Positions 1 through 35,441 of a stretch of DNA of 64,000 bases are shown here, in pieces. The position numbers were made by a program, and so were the translations under genes. The DNA is taken from assembly GCA_051313645.2 (NCBI GenBank), contig JBNRSN020000001.1, positions 420,608,001 through 420,672,000 on the forward strand. The letters are read 5' to 3'. Each line of letters opens with the position of its first letter. Within the stretch, counting starts at the first letter, position 1. The notes beneath the pieces were generated by a model. It searched no databases, was not told the origin of the DNA, and saw only the letters and a program-made list of their open reading frames with translations. This DNA is from Centroscyllium fabricii. Its lineage: Eukaryota.

Positions 1-42
1 TTCTGTCTTGAAACATGACCCCTTTCCTTGAACTCTTGACAG

Positions 43-831
43 ATCAGTTATGCATCATCAGCGGAAGCGCTCAGTGACAAGGCAAGATTTGCATCATTTT
101 TACGGACTGTTCCAAGTGACATCCATCAAACTTTTGCCATGGCTAAACTTGTTGAGCACTTCCACTGGAACTGGGTTGGAGCTATTGGTACTGATGATAC
201 ATATGGACGGGATGGAATAAACAGTTTCATCTCACGGGCAAAAGAGTACAACATATGTGTTGATTTTCAGGAACTGATCCCAGTTTCTAACCATGAACAT
301 CAAAGTGATAAAATCAATGCAATAGCTGAAAAAATTACGGACTCAACTGCGGAAGTTATAATTGCATTTGTAAGGGAACCAGATATCACCAAACTGTTCA
401 CTGTACTGATTCAACGGAATGTAACTAAAACCTGGATTGCCAGTGATGCCTGGTCCACTTCTAGGCAGATTGCCAGAATTAATCATATTGAAAGAATTGG
501 AACTATTTTGGGCTTTACATTCAAAGGAGGAAACATTTCCAACTTTGAAGACTACTTAAAAAATTTGGAGATACATCCCAAAAATGCTAGCAAGCTTCTT
601 AAACAATACTTCAGCAATGCAAATAAAAGTGATACAAATAAACCAACTCAGAATGATAAAAACGCACAGCAAAACGAATCTCAGGCATATTTCAATATAA
701 TTGAAACTATTGATAAACCTGCTAGCTATGCAATATACTTAGCCATCAATGCCACAGTTTATGCTCTCCGGAGGATGCTCAATTGTAGTCAAGAAAAGTG
801 CAATGGAAATTTAAATTTCCCACCATGGCAG
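43..831 (+). CDS. gprc6a-like: Class C GPCR (GPRC6A-like), large Venus-flytrap exon (internal; upstream exons lie outside the window)
   Basis: Acceptor ttgacag at 36-42, then in-frame ISYASSAEALSDKARFASFLRTVPSD...HFHWNWVG...DDTYG...WIASDAW...FPPWQ, donor CAG|gtaaaa at 831/832. 789 nt, phase 0-0, same boundaries as the corresponding GPRC6A/CaSR exon. Confidence 0.9.
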
Positions 832-9102: not shown

Positions 9103-12100
9103 TTGAGGGGGGAAGGGGACCAGGTAGAAGTTGTGGTCCACATTGGCACTAACGACATAGGAAAAAAGGGGGTCGAGGTCCTGCAAAAAGAATTTAGGGA
9201 GCTAGGTAACAAGCTAAAAAGCAGGACCCCAAAGGTTGTAATCTCTGGATTACTCCCAGTGCCACGGGCTAGTGATTATAAGAACCGTAAGATAGAGCAG
9301 CTTAACTCGTGGCTAAGAAGTTGGTGTAAGGGGGAGGGTTTCAGCTTTTTGGATAATTGGTCCCGCTTCTGTGGAAAGTGGAACCTATACATGCCCGACG
9401 GATTGCACCTGAACCGGAAGGGGACCAATATCCTTGCAGGAAGGTTTGCTAGCCGGGTTGGGGTGGGTTTAAACTAATTTGGCAGGGGGAGGGGACCCAG
9501 AGTGAAGGTAAAATGGATAGGGGAACACAACCAAATAAAGGAAAGCAGACTAGACAGCAAAACAAGGTAGTTTTAGGACAGAGAATGAAGGGTATATACT
9601 TTAACGCAAGAAGTCTGACTAACAAGGTGGATGAGTTAAAGGTATTGGTTGACTCATGGGATTATGATATAGTAGCTATCACGGAGACGTGGCTGAAAGA
9701 GGGGCAAGAATGGCAGCTAAATATTCCGGGGTATAGAATTTTCAGGCGAGACAGAGACGAGGGAAAAAGGGGAGGGGGGGTAGCAATACTGATTAAGGAG
9801 TCAATCACAGCCATTAGGCGGGTCGACCTAATGGACGATTCCTCAAACGAGGCACTATGGGTGGAGGTAAAAAATAAAAAGGGGGGCGGCACCTTACTGG
9901 GAGTTTATTATAGACCACCAAACAGTAAAGGGGAGGTAGAGGATAAGATATGTGAACAAATCACGAAGATAAGTGAAAATAATAAAGTAACAATACTAGG
10001 GGACTTTAATTTCCCCAATATCAACTGGGAGAATCAAAGTGTGAGGGGCACGGATGGTTCAGCATTCTTACAATGCAGCCAAGATAATTTTTTGAAACAA
10101 TATGTTGGGTCACCTACAAGGGGGGGGGCGGTACTAGACCTAATACTTGGGAACGAGGACGGGCAGATAGAGGAGGTAACAGTGGGGGAGCACTTCGGGG
10201 ATAGCGACCACAATTCAGTTAGTTTCAAAATTGTAATGGAGAAAGATAAAAATGGACCAGGGGTAAAAATACTAAACTGGGGGAAGGCGGATTTCAATAA
10301 AATTAGGAACGATGTAACCGCAGTAGATTGGGGCCATCTCCTCAGAGGAAGATCTGCATCAGAGCAGTGGGAGGCCTTCAGAGGGGAAGTCGGGAAGATA
10401 CAGGAGGAACATGTTCCTGCAAAAATTAAGGGTGGGGGAGACAAACAAAGGGAACCTTGGATGTCTAGGGATATATGTAAATTAATGAAAAAAAAAAGGG
10501 GGGCTTTTAATGAATATAAACGGCTAAAAACTGAGGAGGCACTAGGGGAGTATAAGAAATATAGGGGTGATTTAAAGAAGGAGATAAGAAAAGCCAAGAG
10601 AGGTCATGAGATTACAATGGCCGGTAAAATCAAGGATAACCCTAAGGCATTTTATAGTTATATAAAAAACAAAAGGATCACGAGGGAAAGAGTGGGGCCC
10701 ATTAAAGACGATAGCGGAAAGCTGTGCGTCGAGCCTGAGGAGGTGGGGGAGGTACTAAATGAATTCTTCTCTTCAGTATTCACAAGAGAGAGGGACGATA
10801 CCGACATCGAAATCGGACAGAGTGTAGGGGGGGTAATTGAGGATATTACCATTACAAGGGAAGAAGTTCTAGAAATCCTGGGAGGCTTAAAGGTGGACAA
10901 ATCACCAGGGCCGGACGCAATGTTCCCCAGGCTGCTGTTCGAGGCCAGGGAGGAGCTTGCGGGCCCCCTGTCTCAAATCTTCAGGACCTCTCTCGCGTCA
11001 GGGGATGTACCTGAGGACTGGAGAACGGCTAATATAGTACCCCTGTTTAAAAAGGGTAGTAGGGACAAACCGGGTAACTACAGGCCAATCAGTCTTACAT
11101 CTGTAGTGGGGAAAGTAATGGAAAAAATTCTGAGGGATAAAATCAGTTCGCATTTGGACAAACAAGGTCTAATAAGAGACAGTCAGCATGGCTTCGTCAA
11201 AGGTAAGTCGTGCCTGACCAATCTGTTGGAATTCTTTGAGGAGGTAACAAAGAGGGTGGATGAAGGGAGTACTGTGGACGTAGTGTATATGGACTTTAGC
11301 AAAGCTTTTGATAAAGTCCCACATAGGAGACTAATAACAAAGGTTAGAGCGCACGGGATACAGGGTAACTTGGCACAGTGGATCGAAAATTGGCTGGGGG
11401 ATAGGAGACAAAGGGTAATGGTAGAGGGCTGCTTCTGTGACTGGAAACCAGTAACCAGTGGCGTCCCCCAAGGATCGGTTTTGGGACCCTTACTGTTTCT
11501 AGTATACATCAACGATTTGGATATGGGAGTAGGGGGTATGATCAGCAAATTCGCTGATGATACAAAAATCGGAAGGGTGGTAAACAACGATGAGGATAGT
11601 AAGGGGCTTCAGGAGGATATAGATATAATGGTTAATTGGGCGGAAAAATGGCAAATGGAGTTCAACCCAGAGAAATGCGAGGTCATACAATTCGGTAGAC
11701 CAAATGGGGTAAGGGAATATACCATGAACAACAAAACGTTAAGTAGGACCGAGGAACAGAGGGACCTTGGGGTACAGGTGCACAGCTCCCTGAAGGTTGC
11801 TGGACACGTTAACAAGGTGGTTAAGAAGGCATACGGAATTCTCGCCTTTATTAACCAGGGCATAGTATACAAAAGTAGGGAGGTAATGTTAAACTTGTAT
11901 AACACACTGGTGAGACCTCAGCTGGAGTACTGTGTGCAGTTCTGGTCACCGCACTTCAGGAAGGATGTGGTTGCCCTGGAAAGGGTGCAGAGAAGGTTTA
12001 CCAGGATGATACCTGGTCTGGGGGACTTATGCTACGAAGAAAGGCTGGACAGGCTGGGGTTGTTTGCCTTGGAGAAGAGAAGGTGGAGGGGTGACATGAT

Positions 12101-12479
12101 TGAGGTGTACAAGATCATGAGGGGACACGATAGGGTAGACAAAGGGGCATTGTTTCCCCTGGTGGGAGAGTCAAGTACTAGGGGACATAGATTCAAGATC
12201 AGGGGGGGGAGGTTTAGGGGGGAGGTAAGGAGAAATTTCTTTACCCAGAGGGTGGTGGAAGTCTGGAACTCCCTGCCTGTGAGGGTGGTGGAGGCAGGAA
12301 CCATCACAACATTTAAAAAATACTTGGACCAGCACATGAAGGACCATAACATACAGGGTTATGGGCCAGGTGCGGGCAACTGGGGTTAATACAGTGAGGA
12401 GTTTTTCTGGGCCGGTGCGGACTGGATGGGCCGAATGGCCCTTATCCGCACTGTAAAATTTCTATGATTCTATGATTCT
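9103..12479 (+). mobile_element. Young CR1 LINE, truncated within ORF1
   Basis: ORF1 SGNH-esterase end (GTND, DGLH) at 9103-9477; uninterrupted ORF2; (TTCTATGA)n tail; TSD ATGAATC at 9096-9102 and 12480-12486. Confidence 0.95.
9513..12389 (+). CDS. CR1 ORF2, APE endonuclease + reverse transcriptase (958 aa, no stops)
   Basis: NARSL, ITETW, GDFN, SDHN (EN); SQHGF, DFSKAFD, GVPQGSVLGP, FADD (RT). Confidence 0.93.
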   Translation: MDRGTQPNKGKQTRQQNKVVLGQRMKGIYFNARSLTNKVDELKVLVDSWDYDIVAITETWLKEGQEWQLNIPGYRIFRRDRDEGKRGGGVAILIKESITAIRRVDLMDDSSNEALWVEVKNKKGGGTLLGVYYRPPNSKGEVEDKICEQITKISENNKVTILGDFNFPNINWENQSVRGTDGSAFLQCSQDNFLKQYVGSPTRGGAVLDLILGNEDGQIEEVTVGEHFGDSDHNSVSFKIVMEKDKNGPGVKILNWGKADFNKIRNDVTAVDWGHLLRGRSASEQWEAFRGEVGKIQEEHVPAKIKGGGDKQREPWMSRDICKLMKKKRGAFNEYKRLKTEEALGEYKKYRGDLKKEIRKAKRGHEITMAGKIKDNPKAFYSYIKNKRITRERVGPIKDDSGKLCVEPEEVGEVLNEFFSSVFTRERDDTDIEIGQSVGGVIEDITITREEVLEILGGLKVDKSPGPDAMFPRLLFEAREELAGPLSQIFRTSLASGDVPEDWRTANIVPLFKKGSRDKPGNYRPISLTSVVGKVMEKILRDKISSHLDKQGLIRDSQHGFVKGKSCLTNLLEFFEEVTKRVDEGSTVDVVYMDFSKAFDKVPHRRLITKVRAHGIQGNLAQWIENWLGDRRQRVMVEGCFCDWKPVTSGVPQGSVLGPLLFLVYINDLDMGVGGMISKFADDTKIGRVVNNDEDSKGLQEDIDIMVNWAEKWQMEFNPEKCEVIQFGRPNGVREYTMNNKTLSRTEEQRDLGVQVHSSLKVAGHVNKVVKKAYGILAFINQGIVYKSREVMLNLYNTLVRPQLEYCVQFWSPHFRKDVVALERVQRRFTRMIPGLGDLCYEERLDRLGLFALEKRRWRGDMIEVYKIMRGHDRVDKGALFPLVGESSTRGHRFKIRGGRFRGEVRRNFFTQRVVEVWNSLPVRVVEAGTITTFKKYLDQHMKDHNIQGYGPGAGNWG

Positions 12480-12659: not shown

Positions 12660-15600
12660 CATGGAAACAAGCCTGCTCCGCCATTTAATGAGATCATGGC
12701 TGATCATCCAAATTCAGTACCCTGTCCCTGCTTTCTCCCCATATCCATTGATCCCTATAGCCTTAAGAAATATATCTAACTCCTTCTTGAATATATTTAA
12801 TGAATTGGCTGATGGCTTATCAATAACTTTAGAGATGAGAAGTTGAGGAGTGAACTAAAGGCTTTTATTCACTAAGACATGAGCATGCCCCAGCTAGTCG
12901 ACTGATCCCAGAATGATTGGGGGAGGGAGACAGTCGCCTTTATACCTGGGTCTGGGGAGGAGGAGCCACAGGCGGGGTCAGAACAGGCATGCCCGGACAA
13001 GCTATACATGAAAGACTATGTACAAACAGTAGAGGTCACACACACAATGCATACAGATACAAACATATATATACAGTGGTTTACCACATTCACCCCTTGT
13101 TTAAAATAAAGTCCGGCGGGGTAATGTTGGGCAACCATCAAAGGTTCAGTCTCTCGGGCGGTTTGGTCTGCCCTGTAGAGCGGCGTACAGTTGGCGGTGG
13201 AGTCGGCGGCGGCAGAATCGGCGGCGGTGCTTGCTCCGACGCGGGGCCCCTTACGGTTACGGTCACTGGCGCGCTCTCCCACTCGTCGTCCGGCCAGCGG
13301 GTGTGTAGGTTTGGGGGCCATACCGTGCTGCCTGCAGGTGCTGGGTGGGCGTACCGTGGTGCTGGTGCCTCGAGGTGGATGACGTACCGTGGCGCTGGTG
13401 CCCCGAGGGTGGCAGTGGGGGGGTGGGGTGCGGGCTGGTGGGTCGTGGTGGTCTCGGGGGCACCCGAGGGTTCCAGGTCCTTGATGGACACCATGTCCTC
13501 CCGCCCTTCAGGGTACGCCACGTAGGCGTACTGGGGGTTGGCGTGGAGGAGGTGGACCCGTTCGACCAGGGGGTCCGACCTATGGCCCCTCACGTGCTTC
13601 CGGAGCAGGACAGGTCCTGGGGACGATAGCCAAGACGGCAGCGAGGTCCCTGAAGCCGACTTCCTGGGGAAGGCAAAAAGTCGCTCGTGAGGGGTGGCGT
13701 TAGTGGCCATACACAGAAGTGACCTAATGGAGTGGAGCGCTTCGGGGAGGACGGCCTGCCAGCGGGAGACTGGGAGGCCCTTAGACCGCAGGGCTAATAG
13801 GATGGCCTTCCAGACGGTGGCGTTCTCCCTCTCCACCTGTCCGTTCCCCCGGGGGTTATAGCTGGTAGTCCTGCTCGTGGTAATGCCCTTGGCAAGCAGA
13901 AACTGACGCAGCTCGTCACTCATAAAAGAGGTGCCCCGGTCGCTATGGATGTAGCTGTGGTACACGAACAGGGAAACGGTGCTGTGCAGTGCCCTAATGA
14001 CCGTGGAGGAGGTCATGTCTGGGCAGTGGATGGCGAAGGGGAAACGTGAGTACTCATCAATGACATTGAGGAAGTACACGTTGCGGTTAGAGGAGGGGAG
14101 GGGCCCTTTAAAGTCGACGCTGAGTCGCTCAAAGGGGCGGGTGGCCTTGATCAGGTGTGCCCGGTCCGGCCGGAAGAAGTGCGGCTTGCACTTTGCACAG
14201 ACCCGGCAGTTCTTGGTCATGGTCCTGACCTCCTCGATGGAGTAAGGGAGGTTGCGGGACTTAATAAAATGGACGAACCTGGTGACCCCCGGGTGGCAGA
14301 GGTCGTTGTGCAGGGTCTGGAGACGGTCCACTTGTGCACTGGCACATGTACCGCGGGACAGGGCATCTGGGGGCTCATTGAATTTCCCGGGCCGGTACAA
14401 GATATCGTAATTGAAAGCGGAGAGTTCGATTCTCCACCTCAATATCTTGTCATTCTTGATTTTGCCCCGCTCTTTGTTGTTGAACATAAAAGCGACTGAG
14501 CGTTGGTCAGTCAGCAGGGTAAATCGTTTGCCGGCCAGGTAGTGCTTCTAGTGTCGCACTGCTTCAACAATGGCCTGGGCCTCCTCCTCAACGGAAGAGT
14601 GTCGGGTCTCGGGGCCCTGGAGGGTGCGCGAGAAGAAGGCCACGGTTCTGCCCGCCTGGTTAAGGGTGGCGGCCAGGGCGAAGTCGGACGCATCGCTCTC
14701 CACCTGGAACGGGTTGGATTTGTCCACTGCGTGCATCGCGGCCTTTGCGATGTCCTGTTTTATGTCGCTGAAGGCCATGCGGGCCTCTGCCGACAGGGGA
14801 AAAGAGGTCGATTTGATGAGTGGGCGGGCCTTGTCCGCGTAGTTGGGGACCCACTGGACATAATAGGAAAAGAACCCCGGGCACCTTTTCAGGGCCTTGA
14901 GGGAGTGGGGGAAGGGGAGCTCCAGGAGGGGGCGCATGCGGTCCGGGTCGGGACTGATGACCCCATTCTCCACAACACAGCCGAGGATGGCGAGGCGGGT
15001 TGTCCTGAACACACATTTGTGTTATATGTCAGGTTCAGGGTTTTGGCAGTGTGGAGAAATTTCTGGAGGTTGGTGTCGTGGTCCTGATGGTCGTGGCCGC
15101 AGATGGTAACATTATCGAGGTACGGAAAGGTGGCCCGCAGTCCGTACTGATCTACCATTCGGTCCATCTCCCGTTGGAAGACCGAGACCCCGTTAGTGAC
15201 ACCAAATGGAACCCTGAGGAAGTGATAGAGGCGGCCGTCTGCTCGAAGGCAGTATAGTGGCGGTCCTCTGGGCGGATGGGGATACGCAGATTTTAAATCG
15301 ATGGTCGAGAAGACCCGATACTGCGCGATCTGGTTCACCATGTCCGCTATGCGGGGGAGGGAATACGTGTCCAGTTGCGTAAACCGATTAATGGTCTGAC
15401 TGTAGTCAATGACCATTCGGTGCTTGGCTCCGGTCTTTACAACTACTACCTGGGCCCTCCTGGGGCTATTACTGGCCTCGATGACCCCTTCCCTCAGGAG
15501 CCGTTTCACCTCCGACTTAATAAAGTCTCTGTCCCCGGTACTGTAGCGCCTACTTTTGGTGGCGACGGGCTTGCAGTCTGGGGTGAGGTTGGCGAAGAGT

Positions 15601-20566: not shown

Positions 20567-20817
20567 GTAGGTATCAAGCATGAGATGGCAGGGAGAAAAT
20601 CTAACATAATTTGTTCCAGATACAAAGGTATATACAAACAAAAGACTGAATATGTGGTTGGACTTCCAGTTTGTAAAGTTACTTAGAATTTTTAGTACCA
20701 TTTACAATGCTGTAATCTAATCAAAGTCTCCAAATAAGTATAAACCATAACAACAAAAATTGAGTAGTTTGATTGTAGTAATAAATTTTAGTAATAAAGT
20801 AATATAAGGGTTAAGTC

Positions 20818-21762
20818 ATGGCAGGAGATCTCGGACCCGTGTCGTGCTCCTCCTGTGCCATGTGGGAAGTCAGGGACACTTCCAGGGTCCCTGACAACTA
20901 TGTGTGCAGGAAGTGCGTCCAGCTGCAGCTCCTGACGGACCGCATGGCGGCACTGGAGCTGCGGATGGACTCACTCTGGAGCATCCGCAATGCCGAGAAC
21001 TTTGTGGATTACTCATTTAGTGAGTTGGTCACACCGCAGGTAAAGGCTAGGTCAGATAGTAAATGGGTGACCAAGAGGCAGGGCAATATCAGGAAGGTAG
21101 TGCAGGAGTCCCCTGTGGTCGTCTCCCTCCAAAACAGATATACCGTTTTGAATACTGTTGGGGGAGATGACCTACCAGGGGAAGGCACCAGCAGCCAGGT
21201 TCATGGCACCATGGCTGGCTCTGCTGCACAGCAGGGTGGGAAAAAGAGTGGTAGAGCTATAGAGATAGGGGACTCAATTGTAAGGGGAATAGACAGGAGT
21301 TTCTGTGGCTGCAACCGAGATTCCAGGATGGTATGTTGCCTCCCTGGTGCAAGGGTCAAGGATGTCTCGGAGCGGCTGCAGAACATTCTGGAGAGGGAGG
21401 GTGAACAGCCAGCTGTCGTGGTGCATGTAGGTACCAACGATATAGGTAAAAAGCGGGAAGAGGTCCTACAAGCAGAATTTAGGGAGATAGGAGCTAAATT
21501 GAAAAGTAGGACCTCAAAGGTAGTAATCTCTGGATTGCTACCAGTGCCACGTGCCAAACAGAGTAGGGAGAACAGGATAGCGAGATTAAATACATGGCTT
21601 GAGCAGTGGTGCAAGAGGGAGGGATTCAAATTCCTGAGGCATTGGAACCAGTTCTGGGGGAAGTGGGACCTGTACAAAAGGGATGGTCTGCACTTGGGCA
21701 GGACTGGAACCGATGTCCTCGGGGTAATATTTGTTCAGGCAGTTCGGGAGGATTTAAACTAA
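20818..21762 (+). CDS. CR1 ORF1p (zinc finger/leucine zipper + SGNH esterase)
   Basis: CSSC...CRKC, coiled coil, GDSIVR, HVGTND, DGLH; open from ATG to stop. Confidence 0.88.
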   Translation: MAGDLGPVSCSSCAMWEVRDTSRVPDNYVCRKCVQLQLLTDRMAALELRMDSLWSIRNAENFVDYSFSELVTPQVKARSDSKWVTKRQGNIRKVVQESPVVVSLQNRYTVLNTVGGDDLPGEGTSSQVHGTMAGSAAQQGGKKSGRAIEIGDSIVRGIDRSFCGCNRDSRMVCCLPGARVKDVSERLQNILEREGEQPAVVVHVGTNDIGKKREEVLQAEFREIGAKLKSRTSKVVISGLLPVPRAKQSRENRIARLNTWLEQWCKREGFKFLRHWNQFWGKWDLYKRDGLHLGRTGTDVLGVIFVQAVREDLN

Positions 21763-22888
21763 TATGGCAGGGGAATGGGAAACCATGTAGCGAAACGGGG
21801 AAGTAATATGCAGTCAGAAACAAATATTAGAAGAGTGAGAAACAATAGGGGAAGGCCGAGTAAACAAAGGCAAGAAACACAAAGGGCCATAATAAATCAT
21901 AAGTCTAAAAGGGCAAAGGGTGTTAATAAAACAAGCCTAAAGGCTCTGTGTCTTAATGCAAGGAGTATCTGTAATAAGGTGGGTGAATTGACTGTGCAAA
22001 TCGATGTTAACGGATATGATGTGATTGGGATTACAGAGACATGGCTCCAGAACAATCAAGGCTGGGAACTGAACATCCAGGGGTATTCAACATTCAGGAA
22101 GGATAGAATAAAAGGAAAAGGGGGTGGGGTAGCATTGCTGGTTAAAGAGGAGATTAACGCAATAGCTAGGAAGGACATTAGCTTGAAGAATGTGGAATCA
22201 TTATGGTTTGAGCTGCAGAACACCAAAGGGCAGAAAACCTTATTGGGAGTTGTGTACAGACCTCCAAACAGTAGCAGTGAAGTGGGGGAGGGTATGAAAC
22301 AGGAAATCAGAGATGCGTGCAAAAAAGGCACAGCAGTTATCATGGGTGACTTTAATATGCATATAGATTGGGCTACTCAAACTGGAAGCAATACGGTGGA
22401 GGAGGATTTCCTGGAGTGTTTAAGGGATGGTTTCCTAAACCAATATGTTGAGGAACCAACTAGAGGGGAGGCCATCCTGGACTGGGTGTTATGTAATGAG
22501 GAAGGACTAATCAGCAATCTTGTGGTGCGAGGCCCCGTGGGGAAGAGTGACCATAGTATGGTGGAGTTCTACATTAGGATGGAGAAGGAAACAGTTAATT
22601 CAGAGACCATGGTCCAAAACTTAAATAAGGGCAACTTTGAGGGTATGAGGCGTGAATTGGCGAGGTTAGATTGGCAAGCGATATTTAAGGGGTTATCAGT
22701 GGAAGGGCAATGGCAGACATTTAGAGAATGCATGGATGAACTACAACAATTGTACATCCCTGTCTGGCGTAAAAATAAAAAAGGGAAGGTGGCTCAACCA
22801 TGGCTAACAAGGGAAATCAGGGATAGCATTAAAACCAAGGAAGTGGCATACAAATTGGCCAGAAGTAGCAGCAAACCCGGGGACTGGG

Positions 22889-25800
22889 TGTAAGGGATCG
22901 GTTTAGGACCCAAACGCAGAAACACCGGAAGTCCGTAAACAGACACAAAATACCTTTATTCCCAGGACAAAATCTATATATATATATATATATATAACGA
23001 TATGATAACCACAGTGTAATAAACAATGAATGAATATAGTCAATCACAAAGAAAGCAATAGTCCAATGTCCCGAGAGCCGGTAAGCAGGAGCTCAACAAT
23101 CCAAACCCTAAGTGTTGGTAGTTGAAAAGCAAGGCCCAAAATCTGGTGCAGAAGTACTTCCAGTCCCAACAGTCCAGGGAAGATGGCTCCTGTTGTGAAC
23201 ACAGCAAGTAATCCAACTTGACCGAAACAGGCAGTCCAAAAGCAAACTCGAATAGAAACTTAACAGTAATATATAACAAAATAACAGGATGAAGAAAACA
23301 ATAGAACACTCCTACTCTCACAGCACCAGAAACCAAAACGAACTGGCAATGAACAGGTGAAGACTGGAGGCTAATAACCCTCTCCAGCTAATTGTATAAT
23401 AGGGGCTAACCAATCCAGAGAAGGACATGATAATTGGAGTAACGACTCAATAAGCTGAAAAGAACCCCTATGAACTTAAAGGGACAGTCCCAAAACCCTA
23501 AAGAAACCTCTATAAACTAAAAGGGACAGTCCACCCCATGACAGAACCCCCCCCTCAAGGGGGCGACTCCTGACGTCCCAAAGCCTCAAATGCCGGATCA
23601 GGCGGGTAAAGAAGTGTGGAGGGGAACCAATAGTCCTCGAAACACTCCTCTATGTCCGTCTCGTAATCTGACTGAGAAGAATCCTCTTCGTCTGCAGATT
23701 CCCACTCATCATCAGGTTCCTCCTCCTTGGTCAGGCTCTCCTGTAACTGAATGGCTCCGATGACTTGGCTAGATCTCTCAAGAGTCGAAGTCTCCTTGTC
23801 TGGCTGATCAAGGTGGCTCGAATGGGAGTCGCTAATGGGTTGCGTTTCCCCTATATCTTGAGTAGGACACGAAAACCTCTCCGCTGGGTCAAACTCCCTC
23901 TGCCCAACCTGTCTCTCTGGAGACCCAGAACGACTATAGTTGGCAGCAGGCGGGTCTTGGTCCGTCGCGCGAAGGCCAGAAATCTGAGCCCGTCTCAGAC
24001 AGCCCTGGTGACAGGAAAGGCTCCAGCCCAGAATATCTCCAGTGTTCCAATCAATGTGCGGGTTGTGGCGACGAAGCCAAGCGTGTCCAAGAATCAACGG
24101 AATCTGTGGTGATCGTAAAATGTGGAACTGGATACTCTCCTGATGGTCTCCAGACATCAGCATCAGCACAGGTGAGGTCTGGTGTGTCACCGTTCCCAAA
24201 AGATGACCATCAAGGGCATGGACAGGATACGACTGTGGTAGTGGCTCCTGGTCAATCCCCAGTTGCGTGACCAGATCCTCATCAATTATATTCATGTCCG
24301 CTCCAGAGTCAATACATATAATGATGCTCTGGGATCCCCTGGGGAGAAGAAATCTTGCTTGACACAAGGGTCGTGGGTTGGAAGAGAAGCCATCAGGAGC
24401 TCGGCTCATCATAACGACTCCATTGGTAGGTGAGTGCGGTCCCTTATACCTTGCTGGCCGAAACCCGGTGCGGCCCAACTGCATAGGCTCAGGACCCCCT
24501 GGCTCTACCCCTGCTGCAACCGTCTCTCTGGATGGCCCGAATCTTCCTTGGTTGCGACCCCATTGCATTGATTCGGGGGCCACTCGCTCAGGCCTAGCAG
24601 TCGCAGTCCCCCTGGGTGTCATGAATACCTCTGGAGTTTGACTAGGAGGATGTCGACCAGACCCTCCCAGACGTCTCTCACGTCGACGCGCCTGGATGCG
24701 AAGATCGATCCGGGTGGTCAGATAAATGAGTTCATCTAGGGTGGGGGGAAGGTCGTAGGAGACTAGGTCATCCTTGATATACTCGGACAGGCCATGAATA
24801 AACACCTCCCTTAAAGCGGCCTGATTCCACTCACTCCGACGAGCCCTGATACGAAAATCTATAGCGTAATTCGCCACCGTATCGTTTCCCTGGCTTAGAC
24901 TCATGAGTCCCTGGGCTGCTTCAGAGTCGAATCTCACCCTGCCAAACACCCTTCTCAATTCAGTGGAGAACGCCTCGAAAGAAAAACAAGCCTGAGTATT
25001 TCTCTCCCACTCGGCGGTTCCCCAAAGCCGGGCTCTATCCGTGAGGTGATTAATTACGAAAGCTACTCTTGTCCTCTCATTGGCAAAGGTGTGGGGCTGT
25101 AATGAAAAAAGTATGGAGCAGCTGGTGAGAAAAGGCTCACACTGCTCGGGATCACCGGCATATCGCTCTGGTACCCCGACACGGGGTTCGAGTGCGGGAG
25201 CTATTAGTTGATGCATGGGTGCTAGCCCCCCCTCTGAATCCGTGTGTGGTGGAAGCGAGACCCCTGCCGACTCCGACACTTCCCGCTGGCTCCAGGCGGT
25301 AGTCAACCCCTCTATCTTGGAAATAACTTCCCCCAAGGCCAGACCTTGGTGTGCCAGGGCCCCCTCCACATGTATCAGACGTTTCAGTGCCTCTGCTGGG
25401 TCCATGGTGGCCAGTTCGTTCTGTAAGGGATCGGTTTAGGACCCAAACGCAGAAACACCGGAAGTCCGTAAACAGACACAAAATACCTTTATTCCCAGGA
25501 CAAAATCTATATATATATATATATATATAACGATATGATAACCACAGTGTAATAAACAATGAATGAATATAGTCAATCACAAAGAAAGCAATAGTCCAAT
25601 GTCCCGAGAGCCGGTAAGCAGGAGCTCAACAATCCAAACCCTAAGTGTTGGTAGTTGAAAAGCAAGGCCCAAAATCTGGTGCAGAAGTACTTCCAGTCCC
25701 AACAGTCCAGGGAAGATGGCTCCTGTTGTGAACACAGCAAGTAATCCAACTTGACCGAAACAGGCAGTCCAAAAGCAAACTCGAATAGAAACTTAACAGT

Positions 25801-26076
25801 AATATATAACAAAATAACAGGATGAAGAAAACAATAGAACACTCCTACTCTCACAGCACCAGAAACCAAAACGAACTGGCAATGAACAGGTGAAGACTGG
25901 AGGCTAATAACCCTCTCCAGCTAATTGTATAATAGGGGCTAACCAATCCAGAGAAGGACATGATAATTGGAGTAACGACTCAATAAGCTGAAAAGAACCC
26001 CTATGAACTTAAAGGGACAGTCCCAAAACCCTAAAGAAACCTCTATAAACTAAAAGGGACAGTCCACCCCATGACA
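22889..26076 (-). mobile_element. Non-autonomous Tf1/sushi-type Gypsy element with apparently identical LTRs
   Basis: 655-bp LTRs at 22889-23543 and 25422-26076; TSD CTGGG; PPT GAGGGGGGGG; 11-nt self-complementary PBS; single internal ORF. Confidence 0.95.
23555..25405 (-). CDS. Sushi/PEG10-like Gag + aspartic protease fusion with acidic tail (616 aa); no RT, RNase H or integrase
   Basis: Kozak gccaccATGG; PERYAGD...FSLQPHTF...LSQGNDTVANYAIDF...EPMQLG; protease IDSGA...ILGHAWLRRHNPHIDW; Asp/Glu-rich tail; stop adjacent to the PPT. Confidence 0.9.
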   Translation of the reverse strand: MDPAEALKRLIHVEGALAHQGLALGEVISKIEGLTTAWSQREVSESAGVSLPPHTDSEGGLAPMHQLIAPALEPRVGVPERYAGDPEQCEPFLTSCSILFSLQPHTFANERTRVAFVINHLTDRARLWGTAEWERNTQACFSFEAFSTELRRVFGRVRFDSEAAQGLMSLSQGNDTVANYAIDFRIRARRSEWNQAALREVFIHGLSEYIKDDLVSYDLPPTLDELIYLTTRIDLRIQARRRERRLGGSGRHPPSQTPEVFMTPRGTATARPERVAPESMQWGRNQGRFGPSRETVAAGVEPGGPEPMQLGRTGFRPARYKGPHSPTNGVVMMSRAPDGFSSNPRPLCQARFLLPRGSQSIIICIDSGADMNIIDEDLVTQLGIDQEPLPQSYPVHALDGHLLGTVTHQTSPVLMLMSGDHQESIQFHILRSPQIPLILGHAWLRRHNPHIDWNTGDILGWSLSCHQGCLRRAQISGLRATDQDPPAANYSRSGSPERQVGQREFDPAERFSCPTQDIGETQPISDSHSSHLDQPDKETSTLERSSQVIGAIQLQESLTKEEEPDDEWESADEEDSSQSDYETDIEECFEDYWFPSTLLYPPDPAFEALGRQESPP

Positions 26077-29000
26077 CTGGGAGAACTTTAAAACTCAACA
26101 GAGGAGGACGAAGGGTTTGATTAGGACAGGGAAAATAAAATATGAAAGGAAGCTTGCAGAGAACATTAAAACGGACTGCAAAATATGTAAAAAGAAAGAG
26201 GTTAGTAAAAACAAACATAGGTCCCCTGCAGTCAGAAACAGGGGAAGTCATAATGGGGAACAAAGAAATGGCAGATCAATTGAATAAGTACTTTGGTTCG
26301 GTGTTTACTGAGGAGGACACAAACAACCTTCCGGAAATAAAAGGGGTCAGAGGATTTGGTAAGAGGGAGGAGCTGAGGGAAATCCTTATTAGTCGGGAAA
26401 AGGTGTTGGGGAAATTGATGGGACTGAAGGCTGATAAATCCCCAGGGCCTGATGGTCTGCATCCCAGAGTACTTAAGGAGGTGGCCTTGGAAATAGTGGA
26501 TGCATTGACGATCATTTTCCAACATTCCTTAGACTCTGGATCAGTTCCGATGGAGTGGAAGGTGGCTAATGTAACCCCTCTTTTTAAAAAAGGAGGGAGG
26601 GAGAAAACAGGGAATTATGGACCGGTCAGCCTGACATCGGTGGTGGGTAAAATGATGGAATCAATTATTAAGGATGTCATAGCAGACCATTTGGAAAGTG
26701 GCGACATGATAGGTCCAAGTCAGCATGGATTTGTGAGAGGGAAATCATGCTTTACAAATCTTCTGAAATTTTTTGAGGATGTTTCCAATAGGGTGGACGG
26801 GGGGCAACCAGTAGATGTGGTGTATTTGGACTTTCAGAAGGCTTTCGATAAGGTCCCACACAAGAGATTGGTGTGCAAAGTTAAAGCACATTGGATTGGG
26901 GGTAATGTGTTGAAGTGGATTGAGAACTGGTTGGCACACAGGAAACAAAGAATAGGAGTAAATGGGTACTTTTCAGAATGGCAGGCAGTGACCAGCGGGG
27001 TACCGCAGGGTTCGGTGCTGGGGCCCCAGCTGTTTACATTATATATTAATGATTTGGACGAAGGGATTAATTGTAGTATCTCCAAATTTGCGGATGACAC
27101 TAAATTGGGAGGCAGTGTGAACAATGAGGAGGATGCTAGGAGGCTACAGAGTGACTTGGACAGGTTGGGTGAATGGGCAAATGTATGGCAGATGAAGTAC
27201 AATGTAGATAAATGTGAGGTTATCCACTTTGGTGGTAAAAATAGAGAGGCAGACTATTATCTGAATGGTGGCAGATTAGGGAAAGGGGAGGTGCAACGAG
27301 ACCTGGGCGTCATGGTACATCAGTCACTGAAGGTGAGAATGCAAGTGCAGCAGGCAGTCAAGAAAGCAAATGGCATGATGGCCTTCATAGCAAGGGGATT
27401 TGAGTACAGGAGTAGGGAGGTGATGCTACAGTTGTACAGGGCCTTGGGGAGGCCACACCTGGAGTATTGTGTGCAGTTTTGGTCTCCTAACTTGAGGAAG
27501 GACATTCTTGCTATTGAGGGAGTGCAGCGAAGGTTCACTAGATTGATTCCTGGGATGGCCGGACTGACATATCAAGAAAGACTGGATCAACTGAACTTGT
27601 ATCCTCTGGAGTTCAGAAGAATGAGGGGGGATCTTATAGAGACGTTTAAAATCCTGACTGGTCTAGACAAGTTAGATGCGGGCAGAATGTTTCCAATGTT
27701 AGGGAAGACTAGAACCAGGGGTCACAGTCTAAGGATAAAGGGGAGGCCATTTATGACTGAGATGAGGAGGAACTTCTTCACCCAGAGAGTGGTGAATCTG
27801 TGGAATTCTCTGCCACAGAAGGTTGTTGAGGCCAGTTCGCTAAATATATTCAAAAGGGAGTTAGATATAATACTCACAACTAGGGGGATCAAAGGGTATG
27901 GTGAGAAAGCAGGAATGGGGTACTGAGGTAGCATGTTCAGCCATGAACGCATTAAATAGCGGTGCAGGCTCGAAGGACCGAATGGTCTACTCCTGCACCT
28001 ATTTTCTATGTTTCTATGTAATCCGAACTCCAAAGGTAGACTTCAGTCTTAAAATCATTACTTATGTCTGTTACTTTTACAGTGTATGTACAGTGAGCCA
28101 GAGGTTATGCGGTTACAAGGGGGAATATTAGGCTGTAGATTTGGAATGGGGTAGACCCTCCACTAATAGGGTATGGAAAGAAGTTTGTAAGAGACCTCTA
28201 AAATACAGTGAATTCATTTTTTAATTGGTTCTGGAAAATAATAGGCTGGGGCTTACAAGCAGCAAGTCCTAGCTTGCATGGCCTGTGAACAGCGCTTCTT
28301 GCTGTCAATGATAAAACAAATTCTGAGAGTTATAGACACTCTGCCTGCAGAAAGCTGTGGTCTACCACCTTGTTGAGCCTTTCAGTCTACAGTGAAAGGT
28401 TTGCAAAGCCCCAAGAACTCAAGCATCAGTCTTTTCAGCGAGGCACAGAGAATCCTATTGCACAGATAAATATGATCATTTTCTTAAAATGTTGTATTTT
28501 TTTAATGGATTCGTCCTGTTACAAACTTATTTTCAGTACAGGTACTACGTATCCCACCATAGTGACAGCTACAGAGGGTTGTTGAAAGGATTTAAAAAAA
28601 ACAAAATGATTGATGACCTTTTTTCAGCATTTTACATTTCAATTTTAGATTTCCAGCATCCACAGGATTTTTCTTTTGAAATGATTTGATTGGATCCCCT
28701 TCTTTATATTATTGGTAGCGTTTGATGACTGCTCATTGTTGATTGCTTGTTTTTATATATACTTCCAAGTTTTTTTAATCGGCTTCTCATTGACATGTTC
28801 CTTTACCAGTCAATTAGTTTTTTTTCTGTTTTACAGATATGAATTTCTAGCCAATATGTGTGTGAATAATGGAAAAAAGTGTGTCTGAGGTGTAATGGAA
28901 AATGCGAGACCTTTATACTTCTATTTGTGTCGTATAAAAAATTAGAAATGTTTCAGTTGTCTGTGGAGGTTTTGTTCTGTTTTAGTCAGCTCCCAACTAC

Positions 29001-33855: not shown

Positions 33856-34305
33856 GCTGGAGCGATTCAGCTATGGAGAGAGTTGGACAGGCTGAGGTTG
33901 TTTTCCTTGGAGCAGAGAAGGCTGAGGGGGGACCTGATAGAGGTGTACAAAATTATGAGGGGCATAGATAAGGTCGATAGAAAGGAACTTTTCCCCTTAG
34001 TAGAGGGGTCAATAACCAAGGGGCATAGTTTCAAGGTAAAGGGCGGGAGGTTTAGAGGGGATTTGAGGAAAAACTTTTTCACCCAGAGGGTGGTTGGAAT
34101 CTGGAACTCACTGCCTGAAAGGATGGTAGAGGCAGGAACCCTCACAAATTCAAGAAGCATTTAAGTGAGCACTTGAAATGCCATAGCATACAAGGCTACG
34201 GACCAAGTGCTGGAAAATGGGATTAGAATAGATAGGGCTTGATGGCAGGTGCGGACACGATGGACTGAAGGGCCTCTTTCTGTGCTGTATAACTCTATGA
34301 CTCTA
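33856..34305 (+). mobile_element. CR1 3' fragment abutting the last splice acceptor
   Basis: LFSLEQRRLRGDLIEVYKI...FFTQRVV; tail AACTCTATGACTCTA ends about 15 nt before exon start 34321. Confidence 0.88.
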
Positions 34306-34320
34306 TTCTTTCCTCTGCAG

Positions 34321-35441
34321 ATTCCAGTGAATGTTTGCAGTGCTCAGAAAACCACTGGTCTGAGGAAGGAAGTTCAATGTGCCAGGATAGAACTAAAGAG
34401 TTTCTTCAATGGAGAGATGCTCTTTCTGTAGTGTTAATCACACTTGCCACCTTAGGAGGACTTATAATATGTATAATAATCATATTGTTCACAAAACATC
34501 TGAGTACACCAGCTGTGAAAGCTGCTGGAGGTTGGATGTGTTACATAATGCTGTTCTCACTGTTATGCTGTTTTGTCAGTGTTGTGTTGTTTTTTGGAGA
34601 ACCGTTTGATTACATTTGTAAAATCCGACAACCACTTTTTGGTATAAGCTTTACACTTTGTGTTTCCTGTATTTTGGTGAAATCTTTTCGGATCATCCTG
34701 GCATTTAGTTTTAATCCAATTATCCGTAAAAAGTTGAAGTATGTCTATAAACCAGTACCCATTATAATTGTTACCACAGGAATTCAAGTGATCATTTGTT
34801 CAACATGGTTATCTTTGAATACTCCAAAACCTGTGCAAAATAGAAACATCCCCAAAATCATTGTGCTGTTATGTGATGAGGGTTCCCATGTAGCATTTGC
34901 TGTAATGTTAGGATACATCATTTTTCTTGCATGTGTCTGCTTTGTTCTTGCTTTTAAGGGTAGGAAGGCTCCAGAAATGTATAATGAGGCAAAATTTATC
35001 ACATTTAGCATGCTCGTTTACTTAATTGTGTGGATTTCTTTTGGGGTTGTTTATAGTAACACAGAAGCTAATAACAGGTATTTTCCAGTGATTGAATCAA
35101 TTGCAATTTTAGCATCAATCTATAGCATTTTATGCTGCCATTTCTTTCCAACGTGCTATATAGTTTTGTTTAAGAAAGAAAGTAATGTTGAGTCAAGTTA
35201 CTTGACACGTGTAAGAGAGCATTTCAAGCAGAGAGGACAGTTTGTGTGTCCAACTGCAAATATAAAAAGAAACTCTGAAATTTCTACTGAAGAACAGCCT
35301 GCCGCCTTGGTACAAGTGAGAGCAGATTCTGAATTTGAATGTCAAGTTAATCAGAAAACGAATCATACAAACCAGATCAAGAATGGCCAGAATCAAACAC
35401 TTGACTCAAACTGCCTGAGAAAAAGAAGTAAAAGCTGGTAA
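34321..35441 (+). CDS. gprc6a-like: Class C GPCR terminal exon, 7TM domain and C-tail
   Basis: tcctctgcag|AT completes codon GAT; DSSECLQCSENHWS...TPAVKAAGG...CKIRQPLFGISFTLCVSCILVKS...AFKGRK...YNEAKFITF; stop TAA at 35439-35441. AFKG and TPxVKxxGG motifs are GPRC6A-like; exact orthology untested. Confidence 0.92.

Follow-up and report, generated by a model that had tools for sequence, protein, structure and literature searches.

We analysed a window of 64,000 nucleotides of the Centroscyllium fabricii genome and found on its minus strand, at positions 22889-26076, an LTR retrotransposon that is very probably a young copy of a deletion derivative of the sushi/Tf1 group present in about 2,000 copies. 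The family likely supplies its own capsid and protease, primes its own reverse transcription and borrows the reverse transcriptase (RT), RNase H and integrase of pol-bearing relatives. An earlier note on this DNA had described a very young, mobile element, and the copy number and the many copies with identical LTRs bear this out. It had also proposed a mobile parasite that makes its own capsid and protease and borrows RT and integrase: the element is mobile, multi-copy and encodes both proteins without an RT, RNase H or integrase core, while the borrowing is our inference.

The element is delimited by its LTR pair and its target-site duplication. The two 655-bp LTRs (TG...CA) lie on the minus strand, the 5' LTR at 25422..26076 and the 3' LTR, with AATAAA at 22955-22960, at 22889..23543. 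They had been described as showing no difference, and they are indeed equal at 655/655 nucleotides, with CTGGG on both sides (22884..22888 and 26077..26081, +, by sequence inspection). The interior holds a single Gag-protease open reading frame (ORF) of 616 aa (23555..25405, -), identified by translation and Pfam. It reaches, as had been seen, from the primer-binding site (PBS) to the polypurine tract: it starts 16 nt past the 5' LTR in the context GCCACCATGG and ends with a stop that overlaps the polypurine tract (23547..23556, -). Pol-bearing kin have nearly the same tract. The insertion has split a LINE within its ORF2, with the endonuclease on one side and the RT on the other. Pfam matches place the 5' part of this host LINE, with an esterase-type ORF1 and the endonuclease, at 20815..22888 (+), where the insertion cuts it, and the 3' part, with the RT, at 26077..27926 (+). 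The element lies antisense in a stretch of about 33 kb that is dense in LINEs and Gypsy elements, between family-C GPCR exons (ANF_receptor, 7tm_3; V2R/OlfC- or CaSR-like) at window positions 40-820 and 34293-35441 (+). Another LINE ORF2 in the window (9453-12389, +) has an uninterrupted frame of 978 aa and is likely young.

The protein has the composition expected of Gag and protease without the rest of pol. Pfam matches comprise Retrotrans_gag at residues 116-207 (E = 3.9e-10), Ty3_capsid at 85-231 and gag-asp_proteas at 360-446 (E = 3.5e-5, with a score under the curated cut-off). A profile of the protein and eight relatives matches the PEG10 capsid structure 7LGA (E = 1.6e-10). The capsid domain, of PEG10/sushi type, spans residues 73-245 (24671..25189, -), and the aspartic protease, in frame with Gag, spans residues 346-475 (23981..24370, -) with its DSG at 24302-24310. 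Both had been recognised from the sequence as a sushi-type capsid and an in-frame DSGA protease. The Pfam search of the 616-aa protein returned neither an RT, RNase H or integrase family nor a zinc knuckle, in line with what had been claimed. The DSGA occurs in the ORF together with PESMQWGR and PEPMQLGR, and these two motifs, previously noted as a duplicated and putatively cleavage-like motif, lie within a tandem duplication of 28 codons that ends in PxxMQxGR (24470..24604, -). Directly after it the CCHC knuckle of the kin is missing. In the databases the protein is closest to sushi-type proteins of fish, at 45-51% identity, in which a CCHC knuckle directly follows PEPMQLG, whereas the 616-aa protein has none there; our guess is that an Arg-rich stretch after the capsid answers for RNA packaging without a knuckle. 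The catalytic IDSGAD is retained in 65/69 loci of the family. Protease activity, particle formation and cis-preference of the family protein are predictions; an AlphaFold model was poor (mean pLDDT 40.9 with a 9-row alignment) and was set aside.

The last 142 aa are rich in Glu (14%), Ser (13%) and Asp (11%), as the earlier note had observed, but they do not stand in place of pol: they consist of pieces of the integrase C-terminus and a read-through extension. Alignment to pol-bearing kin of the same genome places two stretches in frame. The first is a remnant of the integrase helix that follows the catalytic core (23894..23980, -); the second is the second half of the chromodomain with the acidic end of pol (23630..23893, -), which matches the integrase C-terminus of the kin at 48% over 88 aa (blastp, E = 1e-17; in the divergent copy L080 the identity is 53%). 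The family then runs 24 codons past the stop of its kin, up to the polypurine tract (23558..23629, -). Save for these in-frame C-terminal remnants, RT, RNase H and integrase with its chromodomain are absent from the element. The in-frame alignment rules out that the tail is out-of-frame pol evolving neutrally. We also noticed that another Gypsy integrase tail in the window (13138-14547, -) has PDDEWESA, the same eight residues as in the acidic tail of the element, either by chance or as a shared motif.

The genome holds what appear to be the intermediates of this reduction. Pol-bearing kin are 59-70% identical in the Gag-protease protein and 72-77% in DNA, and they come in three layouts: a gag stop followed by a shifted pol with a knuckle, a single ORF with a knuckle, and a single ORF without one. 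The last of these was found in 3/17 full-length loci and at 190 junction matches genome-wide; it is a young subfamily with one ORF of 1,449 aa (L113, L115, L120). The loss of the knuckle and the in-frame fusion of Gag and protease, which had been singled out in the element, are thus present but not peculiar to it, as a pol-bearing subfamily has them in common. A sister family encodes Gag, protease and a whole chromodomain in a 1,974-nt interior and has the same protease/integrase junction. Its ORF is 623 aa long in 7 of the 12 fetched loci, 595 aa in 1 and broken in 4, and 40/40 scored matches lie at ≥98%. The LTRs of the sister loci (L124, L127-L138, L151, L153, L156, L157) are about 89% like those of a pol-bearing family. 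Of 20 loci drawn from a different class of junctions, 13 are non-coding minis with interiors of 166-170 nt; such TRIM-like minis occur among L139-L158, often in tandem, and some are clustered at a spacing of about 50 kb on contig 1. The genome thus contains a ladder of pol-bearing kin, the Gag-protease-chromodomain sister, this family and non-coding minis. A 629-aa protein (P0001) from one unrelated contig combines a capsid, a knuckle, a protease and a chromodomain and lacks an RT; there the layout may have arisen independently.

Capsid and protease trees (midpoint root, each without one locus) unite this family and its chromodomain-keeping sister in one clade among the pol-bearing kin, with support of 100/99. 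These trees single out no pol-bearing subfamily as the parent and do not place the knuckle-less subfamily as sister, so that descent from the latter is suggested by a deletion of the same size at the same place. The element is a deletion derivative of the Tf1/sushi chromoviral Ty3/gypsy lineage rather than an autonomous member of it. The likely order of the reduction is the loss of the knuckle with in-frame fusion, then the loss of the RT-RNase H-integrase core, the 28-codon duplication, the loss of half the chromodomain and finally the read-through.

The family is large and recent. The exact junction between LTR and primer site occurs 2,033 times genome-wide (2,284 for a shorter pattern). A search with the interior gave 2,947 candidates, and 40/40 scored matches were full-length with a rounded identity of 100%; the interior of this copy is identical to that at five other loci. 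The 616 aa are kept in 29/29 anchorable loci of 30 fetched, a sample biased by its choice of top matches. We therefore give more detail on a position-based sample of 40 loci, which between them contain 42 of the 43 junctions listed first for contig 1 (one locus has three in tandem, and one junction was left out). These loci are colinear with the window copy at 80-99% identity, and 36/40 keep an ORF of 611-620 aa; of the other four, one has a broken frame, one is interrupted, one is truncated and one is a shorter variant in tandem. The 37 resolved copies have interiors of 1,642-1,890 nt. No LTR substitution was found in 23 of them, each with its own target duplication, and the duplications are of 5 bp in 32 copies and 6 bp in 4, with one tandem array. 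No RT was found between the LTRs of family members in this sample, where RT matches lie only outside the LTRs. Copies with the same internal structure, the search for which had been proposed as a check, are hence abundant; the 2,033 junctions and the copies with intact ORFs rule out a single copy made by a post-insertion deletion, and the 23/37 copies without LTR substitution rule out an assembly artefact as the source of LTR identity. Two of the 40 sampled copies (L064, L084) sit inside pol-bearing relatives. Tandem arrays sharing LTRs were seen at L076 and L010, the former being the shorter variant with a 1,642-nt interior and a single PxxMQxGR segment region. Contigs from four other runs span parts of the element, and contig joints that skip it are other copies of the LINE; insertion polymorphism cannot be read from these contigs because the flanks are a common LINE. 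No RNA run was listed among those with the element, which speaks neither for nor against its expression.

Ty1 p22 and Fv1 are restriction factors derived from Gag, a class marked by trans-dominant inhibition of the parent element. Expressed copies might likewise provide a dominant-negative or developmental Gag, with host selection keeping the ORFs. This would fit the retention of the ORF in 90% of the sampled loci and the lack of a stop among 85 private substitutions, and young gag-only Bik elements are described as needed for zebrafish development (PMC12067270). Yet youth by itself predicts high retention when so many copies have identical LTRs, and the ratio of private synonymous to non-synonymous substitutions is compatible with neutrality. 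This copy moreover has both LTRs, lies antisense in a LINE and shares its interior with five loci, and the pol-bearing kin are still abundant and young. We thus regard a role in restriction, or one otherwise useful to the host, as very unlikely. A domesticated gene would be a single immobile locus that no longer moves by its LTRs, and what we found is about 2,000 young LTR-flanked copies. Such a gene would also show purifying selection on the inserted copy and orthology across species; here private mutations are near-neutral but free of stops, and the flanks are repeats. The suggestion in the earlier note of an intermediate towards domestication, or of a dominant-negative factor, is accordingly not indicated by dispersed LTR-flanked copies with near-neutral private mutations and multiplying pol-bearing kin.

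The patterns of substitution suggest selection on the protein during transposition. The comparison of dN/dS along the ORF, which had been proposed as a check, gave low values between subfamilies for capsid (0.08-0.14) and protease (0.10-0.27), higher ones for the linker (0.35-0.49) and only weak constraint for the tail (0.30-0.66; 0.10-0.73 for its last 61 aa), while the N-terminal 72 aa range from 0.66 to 1.81; these are Nei-Gojobori estimates for eight non-independent pairs of subfamilies that look recombinant. All compared subfamilies share the deletions, hence the constraint postdates the loss of pol. The tail is what remains of pol; constraint on it is weak and greatest at the acidic end. 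Among 56 copies with the exact 1,878-nt interior, 30 of which are top matches, shared variants are synonymous in 92 cases and non-synonymous in 91, against 30 and 55 for private ones (Fisher exact test, p = 0.025). The 30 private synonymous substitutions compare with 25.3 ± 4.2 expected under neutrality. None of the 85 private substitutions creates a stop codon, where about 3 were expected, a hint of some constraint on the copies or of sampling bias. Selection thus likely acts during transposition and not on inserted copies. Most simply read, these substitutions would mean that a source element depends on its own protein for making new copies, and that copies decay once inserted. Selection in transposing lineages, and not clearly in inserted copies, implies in turn that the protein acts in cis on behalf of its own RNA, as is reported for mouse IAP 1Δ1. 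It is hardly credible that the ORF is just young and untouched in an element moved entirely by helper proteins. The near-neutral evolution of the first tail piece and of the N-terminus would agree with such a passive remnant, but subfamilies that are 80% identical in DNA all have open frames across three in-frame rearrangements, and once the deletions had become fixed capsid and protease evolved with a dN/dS of 0.1-0.2, which largely refutes it.

The element appears to carry its own primer. The PBS (25410..25420, -) comprises 11 nt, is separated from the 5' LTR by one base and is the exact complement of LTR positions 197-207 (25870..25880, -), the predicted self-primer and RNA 5' end. The site had been labelled simply as a PBS; its match to the LTR makes it one of the self-priming (Tf1/sushi) type, not a tRNA site, and renders tRNA priming superfluous. 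The chance of an exact LTR complement to the PBS is about 1.6e-4, and the complement is retained in 37/40 sampled loci. When the leader is made to start at LTR position 197, where we place the RNA 5' end, primer and PBS fold onto each other with a probability of 0.96-1.0. Five different primer/PBS pairs, each complementary, were found: one in this family, one each in its sister and in the minis, and two among pol-bearing families, of which one is the main kin. The pairs thus co-vary among kin; some individual kin copies lack an exact match. Self-priming is described for the vertebrate Tf1/sushi group (PMC6317226), and in Tf1 it is reported to require RNase H (PMC7175516). This mechanism implies a need for helper RT, RNase H and integrase, and none for a shared primer.

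The helper is plausibly among the young pol-bearing kin, which provide candidates only. The main pol-bearing type has 7,027 junction matches, with pol checked in part of them. The polypurine tract is nearly identical across all families, and LTRs end in TGTCAT...TTACA. The pol-bearing family with the most similar LTR ends is young (26/40 scored matches at ≥98%) and has an integrase core in 11/12 loci. As to the autonomous partner sharing LTR ends that had been proposed as a check, the polypurine tract and terminal motifs are common to several young pol-bearing families, the PBS differs, and along the body of the LTR this best pol-bearing candidate reaches only 67% identity; in gag-protease the kin reach only 70-75%. 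A pattern for a pol-bearing element with the exact LTR start of the family gave 2 matches, which is no evidence of absence because the pattern was too strict and missed a family differing by one base at the LTR start.

In the mechanism that we favour, the RNA would start at LTR position 197 and its first 11 nt would fold onto the PBS. The Gag-protease protein would be made, cleave itself and co-assemble with helper Gag-Pol; helper RNase H would free the primer, and helper integrase would insert the cDNA with a 5-bp duplication. Self-priming would spare the element any primer site in common with its helper. An alternative, which we deem unlikely, is that the family acts as a supplier, its Gag-protease providing in trans the bulk of the capsid to minis and to pol-bearing subfamilies that have no frameshift and make Gag and Pol at 1:1. 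Single-ORF subfamilies with and without knuckle do exist, the latter with 190 junctions, minis are common (13/20 loci, 166-170-nt interiors), and wheat offers a precedent in Sabrina/WHAM and Quinta (PMC9744471, PMC11302176). However, if the benefit were only in trans, this alone would not preserve the ORF of each source element, and youth is also seen in frameshifted kin, which produce an excess of Gag themselves. Supply in trans and action in cis are compatible, and either does not exclude the other. A further reading, likewise unlikely, is a consortium with division of labour: pol-bearing subfamilies that abandoned frameshift and knuckle would depend on this family for the bulk of the capsid, self-priming would let the primers of the tiers drift, and the stepwise in-frame deletions would form a living series that attains the PEG10 layout of capsid and protease without loss of mobility.

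The cis-acting, helper-dependent element that we favour has parallels in other lineages. The wheat Gypsy element RLG_Sabrina_SA has GAG-Pro without RT or integrase and is termed semi-autonomous (PMC9744471). Like it, the family has an intact Gag-protease ORF, no RT or integrase and many copies of the same structure; in contrast to this plant element of 8 kb, it is a 3.2-kb derivative of a vertebrate sushi-type chromovirus, self-priming, knuckle-less and with a tail that stems from integrase. Mouse IAP 1Δ1 is described as non-autonomous and prolific, with a gag-pol fusion ORF made by deletion whose protein acts in cis (PMC6466679). An internal deletion also yielded a novel gag-pol fusion ORF here, but IAP 1Δ1 is a betaretrovirus-like ERV using gag and pol in trans, whereas the family keeps whole capsid and protease. 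The Tf1/sushi chromoviruses, the direct parent lineage present in this genome, likewise have an 11-nt self-priming PBS, this capsid/protease family, a chromodomain-derived end and a 5-bp duplication (PMC6317226, PMC7175516); the family differs in having lost RT, RNase H, the integrase core, the GPY/F region and half the chromodomain. Plant TR-GAG (<4 kb) and RLG_Quinta are described as Gag-only LTR elements mobilised in trans (PMC4350172, PMC11302176) and are, like the family, short LTR elements with one Gag ORF. TR-GAG elements were chosen as lacking a protease, which the family has and conserves, and Quinta has a tRNA-type PBS and LTR termini identical to those of its partner, which the family does not.

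Among vertebrates, zebrafish Bik-2 and Xenopus 1a11/Xretpos are multi-copy LTR elements with a Gag ORF and no RT (PMC12067270, PMC4585706); these sources describe them without any pol homology and report no protease, and Bik is an ERV. PEG10/RTL (SIRH) genes have the same capsid family, as the match to 7LGA indicates, followed by a protease as in this family; PEG10, however, is a single-copy host gene with its protease reached by a -1 frameshift, whereas the family is mobile and multi-copy with its protease in frame (PMC10516033). The literature searched yielded no vertebrate Gag-protease family of sushi type without a knuckle, as far as the accessible text of the sources goes (that of PMC4079200 holds no close precedent), and a prior entry in a repeat catalogue is quite possible. 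The strategy is thus known from plant semi-autonomous Gag-protease elements and mouse IAP 1Δ1; the lineage is new, and the series of intermediates is unusually complete.

These results place the semi-autonomous strategy of plant elements in the vertebrate lineage behind the PEG10/RTL genes, with the intermediates of reduction in one genome. They provide a natural data set on why a non-autonomous element keeps capsid and protease, be it cis-preference or cooperation. They also let one ask if sushi Gag packages RNA when its zinc knuckle is missing, and if selection on the transposon only can produce, ahead of domestication, the layout of capsid and protease seen in domesticated genes.
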